A DNA stretch of 64,000 nt, taken from the IMG/VR virus record IMGVR_UViG_3300027125_000001; one strand, given 5' to 3'. Below are positions 1 through 27,992 of this stretch, piece after piece; position 1 is the first letter of the stretch; each line of letters opens with the position of its first letter. The notes beneath the pieces are model-generated. The model was not told the origin of the DNA. It ran no database searches and was given only the letters and a program-made list of their open reading frames with translations. The translations under genes and the position numbers were made by a program. The stretch comes from a virus (Duplodnaviria; Heunggongvirae; Uroviricota; Caudoviricetes).

Positions 1-88
1 GACGTCGCTTTGCCCGCAATTCCTAAAATTAAATATTTCATGCAATATTATAATCTTTGTTTAAAAGATTTGCAACGTAAATATTTGT

Positions 89-3959: not shown

Positions 3960-6900
3960 ATGTTTGTAGAAGTTTCGACATTAACTGCTTGGCCAAATGA
4001 ATCGTTCAGAGTAACGCATTCAGCACTATCGACTACTGGTTCGGGCCCCATTTATTCAATTGCGGGATATACGCCTCTTACGATTGCGATTAATATTGAC
4101 GGAATACACAATTCCGCATCTTTAAATGCAGTAATTGTGCCGCGACTTACATATACAACAGGTGCAACAGTCGAAGCTGTTATTACAGAATTGGCACAGT
4201 CAACACTATCTGGGGTGCCGTCGTTTACAATCAAATCAACAACAAGCGGGCTTTATTTGCCGTTTAACGATCATTCGACTTTTACTAGTAGAATATTTAA
4301 TAAATCGATATTTACATTTTCAGGAACAGAAGGGCAGCAACAAGATCAGTTGGCATCTATGGCACTAACGGCAGGGTCTGCATATTACATTATACCATCG
4401 CATTTAACATATACAGACAATAGGGAACCATCAGCAATTATTGCATCGGGTCGTCTCGATTTATCTGCGAGATTAAGAAATTGGGAATATGACTTATTTA
4501 CAAGTAGCACTTTAGAAACAGGCCAAGCAAATACATCGCCATATAATTTTGCATTTTTGAATTATGCAGTTTCGCCTGCATCTTATACACCAATTACAAC
4601 GAATCAAATCAGTGCGTTAAGTGCTATTATCAACACACCAAAAGTATATCGCCATGTTGATGTAAATGTAGCAACCACAGTAGACGGTGCGTCGTCTTTC
4701 TCGAATAACTTATTATCAGTAGCAGGTGCGTCACAATCACTAGGCGAAGAATTGCTGCCTGGTAGCATTGTTCTAGAATTTTCATACGACAGCCCTCTCT
4801 ATAAAGATAGTGAGTATACGTTCGATGAAATACCTGCAACATATGGATATAGTTCGGGATATCGCGAAACATTGCTAAAAGAATTGTCATCCGTTACAGT
4901 CCCTGTTATCAGCTCTGGAACTGCATTTGTGCGGGACATTCCTATGACGGGAGCTAATCCAGTCTCTGGTAACCTTGTAGGGAGGGACCCAATTTTCAAT
5001 GAATATTTTGTTAACAGCGCAACAAGTGTTATTAATTATCAAACTGGTGCGTTTGCTCTTTTCTTAAACACGGGATATAAACTTACAGGAAATGCGCTGT
5101 TGCGTGGATTTTACGATAACAAGTATGACGATTTTGCTGGCTATCCTACGTATCAAGTAATTGGCCAATCTCCTAACGATCATGAATTGAGCCTGATTGA
5201 TAAAAGTGTACGAACTGTAGGCAATAATGTATTTGCAAGATACGATGTTAGCGTATATAATTTGTCATCGATTGTAGACAGAAACGACTACCCAACATAT
5301 CCATCAACAATCACATCGATTAAGGCGTATAATTACGCATCATCGATACAAATTGGTTTGAATGCATTAACTTCATTTAATGCCGTTTCGTCGATTTCAT
5401 TCAGCTCGACAAATACGCCACTGTGGCTATTCACATACACAAGTACAATAACTTCAAATACCAATACATCAAAAGTCAACGGGCTTCAAATGGTGTTTAA
5501 CACCCTAAGTGCTAGAACAGCTGTGACAAGCAATTCTGCTTTTATTACACCACATATAGTTAGCAATTACGGCACTACAATACTACCATTCGCTTCAAGC
5601 GATGCATATTATGGCTACTTGCAATTCAATTGCTTGGGTGCGGTTACTAAAGTAGACAATAGAACTCAAACACCGACTCTATCTGTATATAAAATTGAAT
5701 CAAACGGGCAATTAACACCATATGAAGTGTCTATGAATGTGTATGACATAACATATCCATACGAACTAAGAAGATCTGCAAACCAAACATATCAAGTCGA
5801 AACTAGTGCGATTTCAGCTCAAACTGCATTCTTGTCAGGAGATCTGTCAATGTCATTAAGAGATGTTGCATTGTTCTATGAAACAGATGCATCTGATTTA
5901 TACGATGATAATAAAATTGCATTACAATTGTACGGATTAAATACCGCAATTAAAACATCTATATTTGATCAATCTATATCATTTATTAATGGCGGTGCTA
6001 AAGTATTCATTAATCTCATACAGCAAACAATAAAAGAATTGGCTGGAGTATCGAGATCGAGCATATCCCTGGATGATTTCGATACTGAAATATTCTACAA
6101 GCTCACCACAACAGGCAATTATTTCAAAAATGTACAGACCACGTTTAATGAAGAGTGTCGTGCATATATCTTGCAGTCGACGTCGAGTAGTACTGCGAAT
6201 GAATTTAAGACTCCAATTGAAAGTCTGTGTGCGGAACTGAGCCCCGTTCTCTCATCTCTAGCAGCTGCAGGGTCTACTGGAAATGATACTCTCAGCTTTG
6301 TATTGACAAATGATTTATTCAGTATTGGCAAATTAATCGGAAGCACAAGTATTACTGCAGAGGAATATAACGTTATCATAGATTTGTTGACCAAGAGCTT
6401 TGTCTTTGCAGCCTGGCCTGCCGCATATGATGTTGCTTCGTCATTAACATTAAGTAATCCTGCATATTTGGGTACCAATTTGAATATTGTTAAATTGATA
6501 TTCAGTCTTGGTCTTGAGACTGTATTTGATTTGTATGTCAAGGCATTTAAAGACACACTGCGCCGCGGTGCCATAACACAAACGAAATATGACGAAATTC
6601 TTAAATACTACGCCGATCAAAACTACGCTAGATTCAATTATGAGATATCGCTAATCAAAACTGCGATTGATTATCCAACGCTAATCAAAGGGACGTTGAA
6701 TCCAAATTATAGTAGCACAAATTACATATCGATTGCGTATTATCTTGCAACTGCAGAAAAAGAACTTGGCACATTGTTTGAGTATGTATATGCATTTAAC
6801 ACCAATGCGAATGAGACTGTATTTAATAACTTTTTCCGCAATTTTAACCTGATCGATAATAAAGTCGGTATGCTGAATATTCGTTATTCGACAGGCAATA

Positions 6901-20593: not shown

Positions 20594-21070
20594 ATGGATA
20601 ATAACTTATACGCCCTTTTCAATAAAACAAATAAAAAATTTGTATGCTTTTCTATTGGTAGTGAAAATTTGCCACCCGGCTCATTATATCGAAAGATTGA
20701 AATAGAGGGAGGCTTTAATCTAGACGCATACGAATGGATAGGAGATTATGATGATGGCCAATTTGTAGACAAAAGCCAACAGCCGTTTAAGATATCGGAA
20801 GTCGATTTGCAAAAGCAAATGTATGATGTCTTTTTCCGAAAATTCGAACCAGTATACGTATTGATGAATATTATCAACACCTTACTGATCCAATACGAAA
20901 AAGACCAATTGCCTTGGGTGGATGAGCCAATGGAAGAAATGTTGCAATTTTACCGAAAGCTCCTTATTAGAACAGAAACGGATGCTAAGTTTTACCAGAA
21001 TTCAAAATTCCATACATATGTAACTAAGCAGCAGATAGAGGATGACTTCCAGTCTCGTTTGGAGAACTGA
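20594..21070 (+). CDS. hypothetical protein
   Basis: 158-aa ORF, tightly packed in a + strand operon. Confidence 0.4.
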   Translation: MDNNLYALFNKTNKKFVCFSIGSENLPPGSLYRKIEIEGGFNLDAYEWIGDYDDGQFVDKSQQPFKISEVDLQKQMYDVFFRKFEPVYVLMNIINTLLIQYEKDQLPWVDEPMEEMLQFYRKLLIRTETDAKFYQNSKFHTYVTKQQIEDDFQSRLEN

Positions 21071-21525
21071 TGAAAAAATACGCACAATTCAAACAAGGAG
21101 TATATAAACCACTTAACAGGGCGAAGTGCACAAACTCTGGTAATATTATCTACCGTAGTTTTCTGGAAAGAAAATTTATGATCTGGTGTGATAAGAACGC
21201 CAATGTCATTGAATGGGGCTCTGAGAATGTGATAGTCCCGTACGTTTCTCCTATTGATAATGCAGTTCATCGTTATATCGTCGATATGTACGTTAAAGTC
21301 CGCGAACGCGATAAGATCTGCAAATACCTCATTGAAATCAAGCCTTATAAGCAAACCATTCAGCCTACTATTACTAAAAAGAAAAAAGAATCAACTATCA
21401 TTCATGAGCATGCAACATGGGTGGTAAACAATGCCAAATGGGAAGCAGCAAAAGGCTTTGCAAACAAGTACGGCATGAAATTTATTATCATCACAGATAA
21501 AGATTTGGATAATACGTGTAAGTAA
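21070..21525 (+). CDS. hypothetical protein (possible TnsA-N / restriction-endonuclease-like fold)
   Basis: YRSFLERKFMIWCDKN...VIEWGSE...IVPYVSP...YIVDMYV pattern resembles small phage nuclease-fold proteins; low confidence. Confidence 0.25.
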   Translation: MKKYAQFKQGVYKPLNRAKCTNSGNIIYRSFLERKFMIWCDKNANVIEWGSENVIVPYVSPIDNAVHRYIVDMYVKVRERDKICKYLIEIKPYKQTIQPTITKKKKESTIIHEHATWVVNNAKWEAAKGFANKYGMKFIIITDKDLDNTCK

Positions 21526-22778: not shown

Positions 22779-22985
22779 TCATTTTAAAGTATTGCGGTCT
22801 AAAGAAAGATCGTAATTTTTATCACACAGCAATGAATTTTTTAAGTCATCTCCATTAATTTCGAATTCTTTTTTATTATCCTCAACGAAAACTAACATAT
22901 TGCCTTTTTCTTTTTTGCGAACGTAGCTATATATTGTCTTTTTATTGTCTTTTCGGATTGAAAGATAGTATTTTGGAGATTTCAT
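22779..22985 (-). CDS. hypothetical small protein
   Basis: 68-aa ORF abutting the nrdB stop. Confidence 0.3.
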   Translation of the reverse strand: MKSPKYYLSIRKDNKKTIYSYVRKKEKGNMLVFVEDNKKEFEINGDDLKNSLLCDKNYDLSLDRNTLK

Positions 22986-24076
22986 TACAGGGCGATTTTC
23001 TTTAAACGGGACTTATCAATAGTACTATTCCGACTACCGATTTGGTATGTAGTAAGATTTTGTTCCTGTGGAGCTGATTGTGATAGAGTTGGGTCGAGAT
23101 ATTCGACTAACCAAGAACCGATTGGATTTTTCTTGCTAGCAAAAATCTTTTCATAGCCCAAACTCGAAAGTCGGTTATTCGCCAACCATTCGATATATTG
23201 GTGTACATTCTCCTCATTGAATCCAATCAAACTGCCCTTTGAGAACAAATAGCTAGCCCAATCCTTTTCACATTGAACTGCCGTTTTATACATCTCATAA
23301 ACCAAGTCAGTATTCTTTTCTACTAGGTCTTGGAAACCTTCATCTGGATTGGTCTTCCAAAGCTTGATGATGTTTTGCGTAATTGCAACGTGAAGCGATT
23401 CATCTTTATTGATCAGGCGAATAATTTTCGCCATTTGAGGTGCCTTTCCTTGTTTGCCAAACCAGAAGGAGAACAGGAACGATACATGAAAATTAAGTCC
23501 TTCTGCAATCTGCGTTGACAAAACAGTCTTAAAGATTTGCTCTTGAACATTTCTATCCGAATCTTTGGTGCCTAAAAGATCATCAAATGCTTTAGTTACT
23601 TCGACAGATCTCTTATTGATTTCTTCATTGACTACGATTGAGTCAAAAAATTCCTCTGGCTTCTTGGTAAGGCCTTTAAGCGCATGCGTATAAGATTCAC
23701 TATGAAGAACTTCACAGAATTGCCAATACGAACAGGCTGCTTCCAATTCAGGTAGCGTAATGTATTTGGTAATTTCATTAATGCCTCTGCTCAGCACTGA
23801 GTCTGTTGCCGTTTGCCACATTAGATTATTCTCAAAGATCCATTTCTCTGTAGCACTCATTGTGTCAATTTTCGACGCTTCGCCAGAAAAATCAATCTCC
23901 TCTGGATTCCAGAATGCAGACTTTTGATCTTGATATAAATCATAAAATTTCTTATACTTGAAAACATCGAACCGTTGTAGGTTGAGTTCAGGTCCTAAGA
24001 ACATTTTACGTTCATGTGGTGGAATATTAGATTTGTTGTATACGCTTTTCATAGTGAGCAAAATCCGGTAGCACAT
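22985..24076 (-). CDS. nrdB: ribonucleotide reductase small (beta) subunit
   Basis: 363 aa; ferritin-like diiron/tyrosyl-radical motifs (…EVLHSESYTHAL…, …ESLHVAIT…); immediately downstream of the nrdA fragments. Confidence 0.8.
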   Translation of the reverse strand: MCYRILLTMKSVYNKSNIPPHERKMFLGPELNLQRFDVFKYKKFYDLYQDQKSAFWNPEEIDFSGEASKIDTMSATEKWIFENNLMWQTATDSVLSRGINEITKYITLPELEAACSYWQFCEVLHSESYTHALKGLTKKPEEFFDSIVVNEEINKRSVEVTKAFDDLLGTKDSDRNVQEQIFKTVLSTQIAEGLNFHVSFLFSFWFGKQGKAPQMAKIIRLINKDESLHVAITQNIIKLWKTNPDEGFQDLVEKNTDLVYEMYKTAVQCEKDWASYLFSKGSLIGFNEENVHQYIEWLANNRLSSLGYEKIFASKKNPIGSWLVEYLDPTLSQSAPQEQNLTTYQIGSRNSTIDKSRLKKIAL

Positions 24077-24642
24077 CCAGAATCGTCCGAAGACTCGGCT
24101 TTTTCTGATGTATCATTTTCTGAGACTTCTTCCGCAGCAAGACTTGTGTCTGCTGAGACTATTTGTTTGTTCTTCGCATAATAAAGAGTCTTCAGACCGT
24201 ATTTGTATGATAAAAGAATATCATACGCAACGTCTGTAGTTTCAAGTTTATTATTCTCATAATTGCCGTAGTTGTAGTAATGATTGGTACTAGCGGCCAT
24301 GCACAGCCATTTCGTAATAGCTGCAGCACATTTGATAATTCCTTCATTTGTACAATCATACGCCGATTTATAATACTTACCGTATTTCTTTGCACCTGGT
24401 GCAATCCATGCCGCACTTCCTTGACGATCATCTTTGAATTGGAAGAGACTGACAATTGGTTCCATACCATTAGTCGAATTCTGGGTTAAAGAACTATTGT
24501 GCGATATAATCTTGCTTTTTCCCGAGTCGATTACATAAGAATGGACATTTGGAGATTCTACGTCGTACGTTGGACAAATTTCGTTAGATTTTGTTATTCT
24601 GTTGATTTTCATATTCGTTATATATTTTATACAATTCGTCAA
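24049..24642 (-). CDS. nrdA: ribonucleotide reductase alpha subunit, C-terminal fragment fused to a C-terminal split-intein segment
   Basis: N-terminal ~49 aa end ...TYDVESPNVHSYVIDSGKSKIISHN (intein blocks F/G, terminal HN) followed by SSLTQNSTNGMEP, which aligns with E. coli NrdA SSQISNATNGIEP; C-terminus KTLYY...DSGCATGFCSL matches the NrdA KTLYYQNTRDG...GCESGACKI redox tail. Confidence 0.75.
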   Translation of the reverse strand: MTNCIKYITNMKINRITKSNEICPTYDVESPNVHSYVIDSGKSKIISHNSSLTQNSTNGMEPIVSLFQFKDDRQGSAAWIAPGAKKYGKYYKSAYDCTNEGIIKCAAAITKWLCMAASTNHYYNYGNYENNKLETTDVAYDILLSYKYGLKTLYYAKNKQIVSADTSLAAEEVSENDTSEKAESSDDSGCATGFCSL

Positions 24643-25672
24643 TACTGATGCTTGACTTGCTTTGTTTTGAACAATTTTTTGATCTCTCTAAAATTTCTAA
24701 ATTGACAACAGACCCAATCACTCTCGGTGATATGTCGTTTATATATCCTTGCTTCTGTGAATATCGATGGTCTACATGATATTCCTTGCTTCTTTTTTCA
24801 AAAAGTACTTCATTATCATTGATTGATTGGGATGTCCAAAATCCTACTTCCATTTTGTATTTCTTCCAGTCATCTAATTTGTCAAGAGTTAGCCACACAC
24901 CTTTTTTTTCCATTGTCTCTCTTAACTTATTATTAATCTCTTGATGATGTGCAAGCCATTCATCACCAAATATGCGTTGGAGATTGGTTGGGTTTCTTGT
25001 GTTGTTGAATATACGTTTGGCATTTATTTTTTCCAAAATAATATCAATATCCTCATCCGTATACCCTTTGTCGTAATATACAGAGCTCAGTAGCCCACAC
25101 TTTTGAAAATAGTATTCTCGTGCTAATTTACTAGCTTCCTCTTCGGTGCAATCTTGTCTTGACAAATAATACTCTTTGCACCATTTGGATTTGCGGCGCA
25201 TGTAATTACTATATTCACATTTCCATGTATGTGGATATTTTTGTTTATACTCATTCAATATATTAACTGAGGATTTCTTGCTTGACAACTGAAATTTTTT
25301 AAATAATGCTTCGCCTTTTTCTTTGCCGTGTCTCGCACAAAACCCTTCTAAAGATGTAGTCTTTTGAGATTTTAAATTGGCTATTTTTAATTCCGCTTCA
25401 ATTAATGTAATACCGAATTTGAGAGATGCTGTGAGTGGATCATACATAACCGGAATTTTGTTTTGAAGACAATATTTGACTCGGGTATTCCATTTGTAAA
25501 ATCCATCTTTTGACCATTTGTCTTTTATCGCCATTGCGAAAACTTTTATAGTTTTGCCTTGAAATCCCTCGCCATATAATTCATCTACATCTTTTTTGGC
25601 ATTTATATTCGATGAAAATGCATTTAAAAAATCGATAATACTACTCTTTAGATTAGAACGTTTAGTTGCCAT
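24584..25672 (-). CDS. free-standing HNH-type homing endonuclease-like protein between the nrdA fragments
   Basis: 362-aa basic protein with EYHVDHRYSQKQGYINDISPRV (His-Me/HNH-like) located exactly between the N-intein and C-intein genes. Confidence 0.5.
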   Translation of the reverse strand: MATKRSNLKSSIIDFLNAFSSNINAKKDVDELYGEGFQGKTIKVFAMAIKDKWSKDGFYKWNTRVKYCLQNKIPVMYDPLTASLKFGITLIEAELKIANLKSQKTTSLEGFCARHGKEKGEALFKKFQLSSKKSSVNILNEYKQKYPHTWKCEYSNYMRRKSKWCKEYYLSRQDCTEEEASKLAREYYFQKCGLLSSVYYDKGYTDEDIDIILEKINAKRIFNNTRNPTNLQRIFGDEWLAHHQEINNKLRETMEKKGVWLTLDKLDDWKKYKMEVGFWTSQSINDNEVLFEKRSKEYHVDHRYSQKQGYINDISPRVIGSVVNLEILERSKNCSKQSKSSISIDELYKIYNEYENQQNNKI

Positions 25673-25721
25673 AATGCGTATAGATTTTACTTATCGCATT
25701 ATGGCAACTAAATTGGGTAGA

Positions 25722-27929
25722 TTATTCGATTTCCATAATTTCTTCGTCAACTGAAAGTTCTTCCACTGTCTTCCACCCATCCTTGGTCAGGAATCTATGA
25801 TCTTTAGTCGCTTTGATAATATCACCATTTTCAAGCTCAATATCAAATACTTCGCTAGTGCCATTGTAATAAATTCTATTCGTCTCAACCGGCCCGTCTT
25901 TTGTTTCGAGTGTAATAGTTTTATCAGACTCATGCCAGCCTTTCATATCATGCATTTCAATATTCTTCCACGAAAACCCAAGTTGTTCGCAAATTTCATG
26001 GAAGTTCATAGGTTTGCCATCAACAAAGACTTTGGTATCCCATTTTAGGCACTTTTCGCACGGCATCTGTGAGGAGACCGTCATGTTTCTCATGCCGTCA
26101 CGACGAATATTTGACATCAGGGCATCCCAGTCCATTGAAGGCTTTCTGGTAATAAATTCATCCACATCCTTCTTGTATAGATCAAGCTTGGAATATCCTT
26201 GAGCGTATTTGGATTTAGACCAGTCAGGCGCTGGTCCCTTTTCTTTGGCAAGCAACCAAGATGCCTCCATTAGGTAATATTGCTGGCGTTCCATGAACTC
26301 ATCGATAGCATTAGGTGCTTCTGGTGAATCATGATTCAAGCCTTGTGTCGCTAACCATCCTGCTAGATTAGTAATGCCAATACCAAGCGATCTTTTATTC
26401 TTAGTGAATCTTTCGGCAGCAGGTGCAAAGTATAATTGGCGATCTACCATATCATCTAGCATGCGTACGGCCTGATGGCATACCTCACGGTGTTCATTTG
26501 CCGATCTGATATTGAGCATATTGACCGCCGCAAGCAAACACGTACCAATTTCACCATTAGGATCATCTAGGGATTGACATGGTTTCGTTGGTTGTAGGAT
26601 TTCTACACAAAGATTCGTCATGTTGACACGCTCAGTCCATGGAGAAAAATCATTAGCAAGATCGATATTAAGAATATAAATTCTGTTCGTTTCGATTCTT
26701 TCTTTGATCAAAGAATCAAAGATATCATCTGCAGGAATAGACTTTTTAAATTTAATCTCTGGGTTTGCTTCTGCCTTGAGATAAAGCTCGTCAAATTCAG
26801 GCATACCAAACGAATCAAATAATTCAGGAACCTCATGATTCGAGAATAGAGTAATGTTTCCGCCTTCATTCCAGCGTTCATAGAAGATTTTAGAAATACC
26901 AATTACATAGTCAAGATGTCTTACACGATTATATTCGGTACCACCAACATTTCGCAATTGGAGAATAGATTCAATCTCCCAATGGAAAATAGGTGCATTG
27001 GCTGTACCGGCACCACGTCTAGCACCACCTTGTTGCTGAGACTTGATCGCATCTTGGAACACTTTGAGATATGGAATAACCCCACCATGAATAGTCTCGC
27101 CATTCTTAACAGGAGACCCAACACCACGAATCTTGCCGAAATCTAATCCAATGCCATATCCATAACTGGTAGCCCTCGCCATAATATGCGCAGACGAAAA
27201 GATCGAGTCTGCCGTATCATCGACTTGAATCAAGCAACAAGATGCACCTGTCTTAACGGGGGTTCTCCATCTTGTAAGCATTGGTGTTGGTATATTCAAA
27301 CGACGCTCAGATACATCGTCATAGAATTGGCGGATATATTGAATCCGTTTCTTGGATTCATAATTTGCATAGTGAGACATACCAATACACATGAACGCAA
27401 ATTGAGGAGTCTCATATACTTTATGATTGACTCGATCTTGAACTAAGCCAGTGCGCACGAGATGCTTCATGCCAGCAAAATCGAACATAGTCTCGTCTCT
27501 TTCGTGGTCAATATAACTGCCAATCTTATTGATCTCTTCTTCACTGAACTTGTTAATTAGCTCATCTGTATAGACTCCGAGGTCTACACATTTCTTGATG
27601 TGGTCATATAGTCTTGGTGGTGTATTACCACCCCACACTTCTTTACGAAGGCCATATACCAAAAGCCGTGCGGCTACAATTGAATAATTTGGATTTTCTA
27701 AAGAAATAAGATCTTCTGCTGACTTAACCAATGAGTCTTGAATTTCCGCTGAGGTGATGCCATCGTAGAAGTTAATCTTGGCATTCATAAGAATATCAAT
27801 TGCTGATGCTCCTGCTACGCCTTTTGTTGCATGGTAGACCATTCTATTGGCCTTTTCTGCATCGAAAATTTCTGTATCTCCTGTCCGTTTTTTGACTAAA
27901 ATGTCTTTCATGTAATGTTTATCGAGCAT
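25722..27929 (-). CDS. nrdA: ribonucleotide reductase alpha subunit, N-terminal fragment (ATP-cone plus catalytic barrel) fused to an N-terminal split-intein segment
   Basis: ATP-cone VKKRTGDTEIFDAEK; active-site TNLCVEI; extein ends ...RNMTVSSQMPCEK (E. coli ...RNSTLSALMPSET); then CLKWDTKVFVDGK (intein block A) and TKDHRFLT (block B); stop after ~105 aa of intein. Confidence 0.8.
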   Translation of the reverse strand: MLDKHYMKDILVKKRTGDTEIFDAEKANRMVYHATKGVAGASAIDILMNAKINFYDGITSAEIQDSLVKSAEDLISLENPNYSIVAARLLVYGLRKEVWGGNTPPRLYDHIKKCVDLGVYTDELINKFSEEEINKIGSYIDHERDETMFDFAGMKHLVRTGLVQDRVNHKVYETPQFAFMCIGMSHYANYESKKRIQYIRQFYDDVSERRLNIPTPMLTRWRTPVKTGASCCLIQVDDTADSIFSSAHIMARATSYGYGIGLDFGKIRGVGSPVKNGETIHGGVIPYLKVFQDAIKSQQQGGARRGAGTANAPIFHWEIESILQLRNVGGTEYNRVRHLDYVIGISKIFYERWNEGGNITLFSNHEVPELFDSFGMPEFDELYLKAEANPEIKFKKSIPADDIFDSLIKERIETNRIYILNIDLANDFSPWTERVNMTNLCVEILQPTKPCQSLDDPNGEIGTCLLAAVNMLNIRSANEHREVCHQAVRMLDDMVDRQLYFAPAAERFTKNKRSLGIGITNLAGWLATQGLNHDSPEAPNAIDEFMERQQYYLMEASWLLAKEKGPAPDWSKSKYAQGYSKLDLYKKDVDEFITRKPSMDWDALMSNIRRDGMRNMTVSSQMPCEKCLKWDTKVFVDGKPMNFHEICEQLGFSWKNIEMHDMKGWHESDKTITLETKDGPVETNRIYYNGTSEVFDIELENGDIIKATKDHRFLTKDGWKTVEELSVDEEIMEIE

Positions 27930-27992
27930 ACGTTTTAGTATTTAGATTCTTATAATGGCTGAATCTATACTATTCGTTTATTTATTTTTATA

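Follow-up and report, generated by a model that had tools for sequence, protein, structure and literature searches.

A fractured nrdA gene with split intein halves and a free-standing putative homing endonuclease in a phage genome

We analysed a 64,000-nucleotide stretch of DNA (the window) from a Caudoviricetes virus, IMG/VR record IMGVR_UViG_3300027125_000001, in which nrdA, the gene for the class Ia ribonucleotide reductase (RNR) alpha subunit, is encoded as two minus-strand genes, each carrying one half of an intein, with a separate gene for a putative homing endonuclease between them. In our view the locus quite probably represents a mobile cassette of the 'fractured gene' type, lodged in the class Ia RNR alpha gene of a T4-like phage, with protein trans-splicing, DNA cleavage and homing, and hairpin control of the endonuclease all belonging to the same explanation. 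The division of nrdA into two minus-strand genes with intein halves and a separate endonuclease had been proposed by a sequence-only reading made without database searches, and it was borne out by the positions of the open reading frames (ORFs), by the intein hidden Markov models (HMMs), by the exact excision of the intein from NrdA and by the recurrence of the arrangement in other phages.

In the proposed mechanism, the two nrdA genes would be translated separately, and the 109-aa N-intein and 39-aa C-intein would associate into one HINT domain, which would trans-splice by means of Cys1, the block-B Thr-x-x-His, the block-F Asp, the terminal His-Asn and Ser+1. The predicted spliced product is a 774-aa NrdA joined at ...MPCEK-SSLTQ... 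(between T624 and S625 of the E. coli protein). The product of the middle gene would be a free-standing homing endonuclease, with a helical region that recognises DNA and a divergent nuclease domain of the HNH type (beta-beta-alpha metal), and would cut the intein-less nrdA alleles of co-infecting relatives. Repair would then copy the N-intein, the endonuclease and the C-intein as a whole into the cut allele, while a hairpin burying the endonuclease AUG would hold its translation low or conditional.

Two nrdA genes and the halves of one intein

The minus-strand order in the ORF list of the window is nrdA-N, the endonuclease ORF, nrdA-C and nrdB (Table 1). Pfam detected in the N gene the ATP-cone, the RNR all-alpha domain and positions 1-390 of 523 of the RNR barrel, followed by an intein N-region, and in the C gene positions 458-522 of the same barrel. 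The N-extein holds the NLCVEI active site, and its last residues are ...QMPCEK. Pfam and the translation agreed in this with the earlier description of the upstream gene, which had named the ATP-cone, the active site, the extein end and the N-intein with its CLKWDTKV and TKDHRF blocks. The C gene reads ...YDVES...ISHN, then SSLTQNSTNGMEP, and the redox cysteines at its C-terminus are spaced like those of E. coli, C-x4-C (GCATGFCSL), and do not form the CxxC tail that had been suggested. The features of a class Ia RNR alpha subunit are all present, namely the three domains, N-x-C-x-E, the Tyr-Tyr pair, the Cys pair and the adjoining nrdB.

Taking out the 148 intein residues gave a gap-free alignment with cyanophage NrdA and an indel-free alignment with solved class Ia NrdA chains. 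In the ungapped alignment with E. coli R1, Lys(-1) corresponds to T624 and Ser(+1) to S625, placing the junction between these two residues; the extein does resume exactly at the homologous residue, as had been claimed. The SSL after the intein is the homologue of E. coli S625-S626-Q627, and the likeness of the 'SSQ' in ...VSSQMPCEK is coincidental. In uninterrupted NrdA proteins of this clade, which are 74-83% identical, the sequence over the site is MPCEKSSLMQNSTNGMEP, as predicted for the spliced product. Strong conservation marks the motif at the junction, E. coli E623-T624-S625, a loop that contacts the substrate phosphates. The identity of the window NrdA to cyanomyophage NrdA does not exceed 49%, and megablast of the locus against phage genomes gave no match; judged by these searches, the window phage is without a close cultured relative.

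The alignment of both fragments to NrdA and to intein profiles, which had been proposed as a check, gave a consistent picture. The fragments are colinear with NrdA, and the joined halves scored above both NCBIfam cut-offs, with 33.6 bits for intein_Nterm TIGR01445 (cut-off 24.5; positions 1-83 of 83) and 18.8 bits for intein_Cterm TIGR01443 (cut-off 15.6). PDB sequence matches of the halves were DnaB, DnaE and RecA inteins, among them the Ssp DnaB mini-intein (E=2e-9). The AlphaFold (AF2) model of the fused halves, IntN+IntC, reached a predicted local distance difference test (pLDDT) score of 89.8 and a predicted template modelling (pTM) score of 0.85. Foldseek of this model against the PDB gave 59 matches at E<=1e-3, the best 50 of which are all inteins, and the matches include gp41-1 and NrdJ-1, split inteins from fractured genes. 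The AF2 model and the Foldseek matches to the PDB thus predict that the fused halves carry the HINT fold.

Residues C1, T82 and H85 (block B), D126 (block F) and H147-N148 (block G) were invariant in seven intein homologues with 33-96% identity. The catalytic pattern was also kept in five further loci, the +1 residue being Ser or Thr in all loci, and the window intein itself ends in ...TYDVES...ISHN, followed by S at +1. Sequence and model together support the conclusion that the extra segments are two halves of one intein.

The intein halves differ somewhat in length from the first estimates. The N-intein was confirmed, with 109 instead of about 105 residues. The downstream segment with blocks F and G is a C-intein, as had been proposed; its length of about 49 residues followed an ORF list that gives nrdA-C from TTG 24642 to 24049. 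Gene calls on related contigs start nrdA-C at ATG 24612, giving a 39-aa leader and then 148 aa of NrdA. From these calls ATG 24612 is most likely the true start instead of TTG 24642, and with the start placed there the C-intein has 39 residues, not about 49.

At the splice junction (26049..26060, minus strand), extein and intein together form a CxxC, Cys(-3)-Glu-Lys-Cys(1). The -3 Cys was found also in intein-less clade alleles (MPCEKSS; P0153 and others compared), and not in the mini-intein protein P0233 (described below) or in the NrdA of phages KP13-7 and WX1. A disulfide between the two cysteines of the junction CxxC could act as a 'redox trap' like that in PDB 3nzm.

Table 1. Coordinates of the split nrdA locus and its elements in the window
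Feature	Position	Strand	Basis and remarks
nrdA-N	25722..27929	-	735 aa = 626 aa NrdA + 109-aa N-intein
nrdA N-extein, 626 aa	26052..27929	-	Pfam; boundary by colinear alignment with intact NrdA
N-intein, 109 aa (CLKWDTKV..., block B TKDH)	25722..26051	-	TIGR01445; TAA stop 25722-25724 included
RNA hairpin, 18-bp perfect stem	25661..25712	-	3' arm holds the endonuclease start codon 25670-25672
Free-standing putative homing endonuclease, 362 aa	24584..25672	-	all-helical region of ~290 aa + C-terminal nuclease domain
Predicted beta-beta-alpha metal-finger (HNH-like) core	24653..24790	-	residues ~295-340, YHVDH ... NLEILERSKN
C-intein, 39 aa (MKINRITKSNEICPTYDVESPNVHSYVIDSGKSKIISHN)	24496..24612	-	TIGR01443; start from gene calls on related contigs
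nrdA C-extein, 148 aa + stop	24049..24495	-	Ser+1 first (SSLTQNSTNGMEP); LYY radical-transfer tyrosine pair; C-x4-C tail
nrdB	22985..24052	-	Pfam Ribonuc_red_sm; start from gene calls on L023

The nrdB start and the nrdA-C stop overlap as ATGA, and the endonuclease 3' end shares 29 nt with nrdA-C. Such an overlap with the downstream gene, 11-23 nt long, was detected in 4/5 further loci; the fifth, L018, has a 45-nt gap.

The putative endonuclease, its relatives and its leader

The middle ORF had been described as a 362-aa HNH-like endonuclease not fused to either intein half. The separation was confirmed, and the HNH assignment is probable, with no Pfam HNH model detecting it: the suggested profile search for HNH and GIY-YIG domains gave no Pfam match to the 362-aa protein, and no Vsr model matched either. 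NCBIfam and PDB sequence searches with the endonuclease, alone or as a 62-sequence profile, gave no match, and Pfam nuclease families (HNH families at E<=0.01) matched none of 62 long-aligning and 61 nuclease-domain-only relatives. PHROGs returned only two families, both of unknown function. In an exhaustive HMMER search, the number of matching representative clusters was 1396 at a threshold of E<=1e-3 and fell to 22 at E<=1e-30.

Among 62 full-length relatives, Y272, D301, H302, S305, N324, N333 and K336 are invariant. They include a DH...N...N motif, formed by D301-H302, N324 and N333 (N-x8-N), of which the H, N and N are invariant also in the 61 nuclease-domain-only relatives. The AF2 model of the endonuclease (pLDDT 94) is all-helical to about residue 293 and ends with a strand (298-302), two short helices, a second strand (325-329) and a helix (330-336). 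The strand-strand-helix element carrying DH...N-x8-N is predicted by this model to be a beta-beta-alpha element. Foldseek of the model against the PDB gave no E-value below 0.4, and hhalign against one HNH_3 protein aligned only NLE..N, in register, with a probability of 3.9%. The motif and the weak fold match suggest that the nuclease domain is probably of HNH type. The IPA-HNH family (Barth 2023) was also considered as the identity of the protein and was ruled out, since an N-terminal HNH and an AP2 domain are found there.

Like HNH enzymes (Gme HNH 4h9d, phage GVE2 HNH 5h0o and HNH_3-type proteins), the window protein has the His-Asn-Asn residues, N-x8-N, a predicted beta-hairpin plus helix, and NLE..N. 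Unlike them, it has no HNH profile match, carries a helical insert of ~20 residues between the strands, and has the nuclease domain at its C-terminus, behind a ~290-aa helical scaffold that is without a Pfam model and without a solved relative. Ten homologue lineages that align well beyond the nuclease domain were examined, and all (10/10) lie in the same nrdA split, which suggests that specificity for the nrdA target resides in the helical region.

In the nuclease-domain-only relatives, the nuclease domain is preceded by NUMOD3, by zinc fingers of the C2H2 or Ros/MucR type, or by DUF7487; homing endonucleases typically show such a modular make-up, NUMOD3 and zinc fingers included. The genes of these relatives are free-standing: one separates the tail sheath gene from the tail tube gene in a Dhakavirus, and another lies beside a sheath gene. 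A tblastn search from a T4-like family member gave 258 phage records, almost all annotated 'hypothetical protein', and by this count the nuclease-domain proteins are widespread in T4-like phages. A few nuclease-domain proteins are automatically labelled 'HNH endonuclease' or 'type II restriction endonuclease'. The nuclease-domain protein of Enterobacteria phage vB_EcoM_IME540 (L015, 2003-2686) occupies the 'gp19.1' position between the tail sheath and tail tube genes.

It is rather unlikely, in our estimate, that the 362-aa protein is not, or is no longer, a site-specific DNA endonuclease, being instead a protein domesticated for DNA binding or regulation, or a nuclease whose fold is not HNH. 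The lack of Pfam and PDB sequence matches would agree with such a role, as would the weak structural likeness to HNH and the label 'predicted nucleotidyltransferase', given by one source to a 94%-identical protein. Against it stand the invariance of DH...N...N with the canonical N-x8-N spacing and the beta-beta-alpha element predicted at exactly the motif residues. The pairing of the nuclease domain with homing-endonuclease modules, the gene positions typical of free-standing homing endonucleases in T4-like phages, the HNH endonuclease labels given to relatives by some annotation pipelines, and the mobility of the cassette with its empty-site polymorphism (below) all argue for an endonuclease. 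The earlier suggestion of a new free-standing homing-endonuclease variant holds broadly, the protein having no Pfam model and being neither GIY-YIG nor Vsr-like, and its HNH nature being probable.

We tentatively put forward a more specific, and at present doubtful, possibility. With the 362-aa protein, a structurally new architecture of homing endonucleases may have been recognised for the first time, in which a minimal HNH-like beta-beta-alpha core stands behind an all-helical DNA-recognition scaffold of ~290 aa. One subfamily would have co-evolved with the split intein as a single mobile unit for one NrdA motif, and the junction CxxC could make RNR trans-splicing redox-dependent.

A 500-aa member of the endonuclease family, P0069 (L022, 57-1559), lies in the same nrdA split. 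Its N-terminus, MTLWKTVEEL, resembles the end of the window N-intein (DGWKTVEEL), although its reading frame is not that of the local intein; the resemblance could be a coincidence or a remnant.

The predicted hairpin at the endonuclease start (25661..25712) has a minimum free energy of -27.4 kcal/mol and z = -6.6, and 0/200 shuffles fold as well. The stem is kept in locus L003, and in L009 compensatory substitutions on both arms preserve it, AGTTGCC/GGCAACT having become ATGTGCC/GGCACAT. The L017 stem has 17 bp and reaches to the AUG, and its loop contains TATAAAT. In L011 (about 4953-5003) the 3' arm of the hairpin holds an in-frame upstream ATG missed by the gene call, and L016 (upstream of 2700) likewise shows an upstream ATG in frame, set in the TATACGCATG context that it shares with L011, the segment folded there being too short to show a hairpin. 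The endonuclease calls of L011 and L016 are apparently 16-17 codons too short, as the upstream ATG gives an N-terminus homologous to MATKRSNLK of the window endonuclease.

Sigma-70 promoter and terminator scans were uninformative. No recognisable Shine-Dalgarno sequence precedes any of the three genes (27930..27950, 25673..25690 and 24613..24630, minus strand), and an A/T-rich leader with ACG a few bases 5' of the ATG is common to all three. Elsewhere in the window, a 151-aa ORF on the plus strand (21070..21525), directly upstream of phoH, has a TnsA-like endonuclease N-terminal domain (PF08722, E=8e-18) and may be another small free-standing nuclease. Just downstream of nrdB in L016 (5721-6716), a Cas12f1-like TNB (TnpB-like) ORF and a DUF723 ORF were observed.

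Selection, recurrence and mobility of the cassette

The ratios of non-synonymous to synonymous substitution rates (dN/dS) between the window and L003 were 0.047 in IntN and 0.035 in IntC, compared with 0.061 in the endonuclease and 0.058 and 0.075 in the exteins; over all comparisons, the extein values were 0.04-0.11. By this measure all parts of the locus are under purifying selection.

An active split NrdA that needs no splicing is unlikely in our assessment, either with the intein halves as mere non-covalent docking domains, like the tails of Aeh1 NrdA-a and NrdA-b, or with a catalytically dead intein. There is a precedent in the mobE-split Aeh1 NrdA, which is active through tail-mediated assembly (PMC3045599), and peptide-bond formation at the present locus is a prediction from sequence. 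Docking alone would, however, leave the nucleophiles and the terminal Asn unconserved, whereas all catalytic intein residues are invariant down to 33% identity, Ser/Thr at +1 included, and dN/dS of the intein halves is 0.04-0.05. An unexcised HINT domain of ~148 aa would also be expected to disturb the conserved E623-T624-S625 motif.

Trans-splicing within a mobile, hairpin-controlled cassette remains the explanation that we prefer, and several points weigh against it. Splicing, DNA cleavage with its target, and the regulatory role of the hairpin are predictions from the sequence. RNR activity alone would be no proof of splicing, because the intein-less split NrdA of Aeh1 is active by non-covalent assembly (PMC3045599). 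The N fragment alone scored 28.5 bits on Pfam Intein_splicing (PF14890), below the gathering score of 35.8; this profile spans both intein halves, which are here on separate proteins, and the KP13-7 and WX1 homologues score 35.8-49.7 bits on it. The T4 late-promoter motif TATAAATA occurs 6 times in the window, versus 6.6 expected, and 0 times in the hairpin, so that the timing model from Aeh1 mobE is unsupported here. A co-conversion tract beside the insertion site, looked for by comparison of L003, L014 and the window, gave no clear signal above background.

It appears very unlikely that nrdA is a decaying gene, a pseudogene eroded by selfish elements, as suggested for Campylobacter phage nrdA (PMC3653736). 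The gene is interrupted several times in Campylobacter phages and in Klebsiella phage KP13-7, and the Campylobacter version is called 'degenerating' in the literature, but the low extein dN/dS was obtained in all comparisons and the fragments are all intact ORFs in many diverged lineages. The residues of the active site are preserved, as are the YY pair, the Cys pair at the C-terminus and, immediately downstream, nrdB.

The three-gene layout recurs widely. The exact N-fragment protein is listed for 88 blocks of the public collection, of which 48 hold contigs of 50-200 kb, and the same neighbouring genes accompany it on 24/24 contigs examined with this protein. A 94%-identical endonuclease stands in the same layout on 20 examined contigs from NCBI, JGI and Logan assemblies; endonucleases at 61, 50, 44, 36, 37 and 29% identity are flanked the same way, and the layout is found also in finished genomes of cultured phages. 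The recurrence in many independent assemblies, diverged lineages and finished genomes removes the frameshift artefact that had been named as one condition for giving up the arrangement: the probability that assembly or sequencing errors broke a single continuous intein-endonuclease ORF is practically negligible, as the three ORFs adjoin or overlap on one strand but all differ in frame (27929, 25672 and 24612 are 2, 1 and 0 mod 3), requiring two independent frameshifts, and the endonuclease has its own start codon in a conserved hairpin.

The cassette differs from its host gene in the pattern of sequence identity. Between the window and L003, the nucleotide identity of the exteins is 70-84%, and that of the stretch ~26050..24500 is 83-98%, mostly 88-98%. 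This high-identity stretch coincides with the intein boundaries, and the identity drops again beyond them; the cassette is ~92% identical between two phages with 77%-identical exteins. The reverse pattern was detected between the window and L009, with exteins at 78-100% (97% protein identity) and the cassette at 53-84%. The nrdA gene of L014 is uninterrupted and presents a precise empty site, where CAGATGCCTTGTGAAAAG is directly followed by AGCTCTCTAATGCAGAATTC. L014 and L003 share 94.8% identity over the nrdA exteins; the values are 92.6% for the upstream flank and 96.2% for nrdB. On the evidence of these alignments, the intein-endonuclease cassette has its own history and moves as a unit.

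A third state of the site was found in a more distantly related NrdA, P0233 (897 aa, on a 49.8-kb Logan contig), which has a contiguous 150-aa mini-intein without an endonuclease domain exactly at the window's site. This mini-intein and the fused halves share 37% identity (E=2e-35), with a single gap, of 2 aa, at the split point; in this alignment the window intein is broken at the endonuclease-domain insertion point. The presence of empty, mini-intein and fractured states at one site fits the prediction of the gene-breaking model of Dassa et al.

Other NrdA relatives of the clade carry contiguous inteins elsewhere in the gene. Mini-inteins at the Cys439 site were read from the sequences of P0165, P0179 and P0228, and LAGLIDADG inteins nearer mid-gene were detected in P0157 and P0162, their site being estimated from query coverage only. 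The contiguous inteins near mid-gene in clade relatives would mean that the same host gene family was hit at two hot spots by different elements.

Relation to known fractured genes and implications

The fractured-gene arrangement was defined by Dassa et al. in 2009 and includes seven NrdA loci (NrdA-1 to NrdA-7), in addition to NrdJ-1/2, gp41-1..8, IMPDH-1 and more (PMC2677866). All published fractured NrdA inteins lie immediately before the thiyl-radical Cys; the endonucleases of the published loci belong to the GIY-YIG or Vsr-like types, HNH fracturing being only predicted; and hairpins occur in 15/16 fractured-gene endonuclease leaders, together with 6-69 nt overlaps with the downstream gene (PMC2677866). 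The window locus matches this layout, hairpin and overlap included, in agreement with the first assignment of it as a 'fractured gene' (PMC2677866). As in the 2009 loci, a phage DNA-metabolism gene is present as two ORFs of the same orientation, each with a canonical intein half, and the endonuclease gene between them has a hairpin at its 5' end and a 3' overlap of 29 nt, within the 6-69 nt range. In contrast to the published NrdA loci, the window site is between T624 and S625, ~185 residues downstream of the thiyl-radical Cys, and not at Cys439. In contrast to the 2009 loci in general, the window endonuclease is neither GIY-YIG nor Vsr-like, but HNH-like with DH...N...N and no Pfam model. The arrangement is thus of a known kind, and what is new, relative to the published fractured loci, is the NrdA insertion site and the unannotated endonuclease family.

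In Aeh1, the fragments of nrdA-a/mobE/nrdA-b are assembled non-covalently by short insertion-derived tails, with no intein (Crona 2011, PMC3045599; also Friedrich 2007). In both systems, a free-standing gene for an endonuclease of HNH type (in the window, probably so) interrupts the nrdA of a T4-like phage and overlaps the downstream fragment, the Aeh1 endonuclease also being hairpin-regulated. They differ in that the window split is flanked by complete intein halves with all catalytic residues. Aeh1 MobE is presumably a T4 Mob-type HNH protein, with an architecture different from that of the window endonuclease. Hef of phage U5 is, like the putative window enzyme, a free-standing T4-like phage endonuclease at the nrdA-nrdB region, and Hef-like genes were reported in Campylobacter phages (PMC3322345).

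Among cultured phages, Klebsiella phage KP13-7 and Campylobacter phages CP21 and vB_CjeM_WX1 (WX1) have a homologous endonuclease (28-42% identity over the matched parts; labelled 'hypothetical protein' in the GenBank records) between homologous intein halves (33-34% identity) at the same NrdA motif. They differ from the window by further interruptions and by a second split intein at the Cys439 site. In the jumbo phage KP13-7 (L001, OP617745.1 31159-39854), nrdA is in at least four ORFs, separated by HNH_3, GIY-YIG and window-family endonuclease genes. The GIY-YIG gene lies in the split intein at the Cys439 site and the window-family gene in the split intein between MPGE and TSSQ, and all these intervening genes are annotated 'hypothetical protein'.

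The KP13-7 intein (L001 2734-3759, 4692-5249) is 33% identical to that of the window and is inserted one residue upstream, between E623 and T624, with Thr at +1. KP13-7 reads MPGE, then C...HN, then TSSQ, whereas in the window and WX1 the intein C...HN stands between ...K and SS, which means that the insertion point of the homologous intein is shifted by one residue.

WX1 (L002) and CP21 (HE815464.1 159095-160214) have the same endonuclease family and NrdA site as the window, and their nrdA pieces are all intact ORFs with intact intein motifs. Campylobacter phage nrdA was described earlier as degenerating or as a pseudogene (PMC3653736). What has been recorded as 'hypothetical proteins' and 'degenerating nrdA' in the Campylobacter and Klebsiella phages probably represents fractured genes that are functional.

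Compared with gp41-1, NrdJ-1 and Npu DnaE, the HINT model gave TM-scores of 0.6-0.7 with only 16-21% sequence identity. The fragment sizes are similar to those of the gp41-1, NrdJ-1, IMPDH-1, NrdA-2 and DnaE split inteins (~100 + ~35-40 aa), and the first residue is Cys in all of them; relative to the characterised split inteins, the window has Ser at +1. Naturally split inteins had been called rare at the outset, and this no longer applies to the fractured-gene type.

Taken together, the locus adds a naturally split intein candidate and its relatives, with Cys1, Ser/Thr at +1 and fragments of 109 + 39 aa, 16-25% identical to solved inteins, to the fractured-gene class that is already the source of several characterised trans-splicing tools (gp41-1, NrdJ-1). 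It also exposes a large family of probable homing endonucleases (1396 clusters, 258 phage records) missed by current profile libraries. One site with three states, together with near-isogenic phages with and without the cassette, makes the 2009 model of split-intein origin testable, and the cultured Campylobacter and Klebsiella phages are usable for experiments on fractured nrdA.

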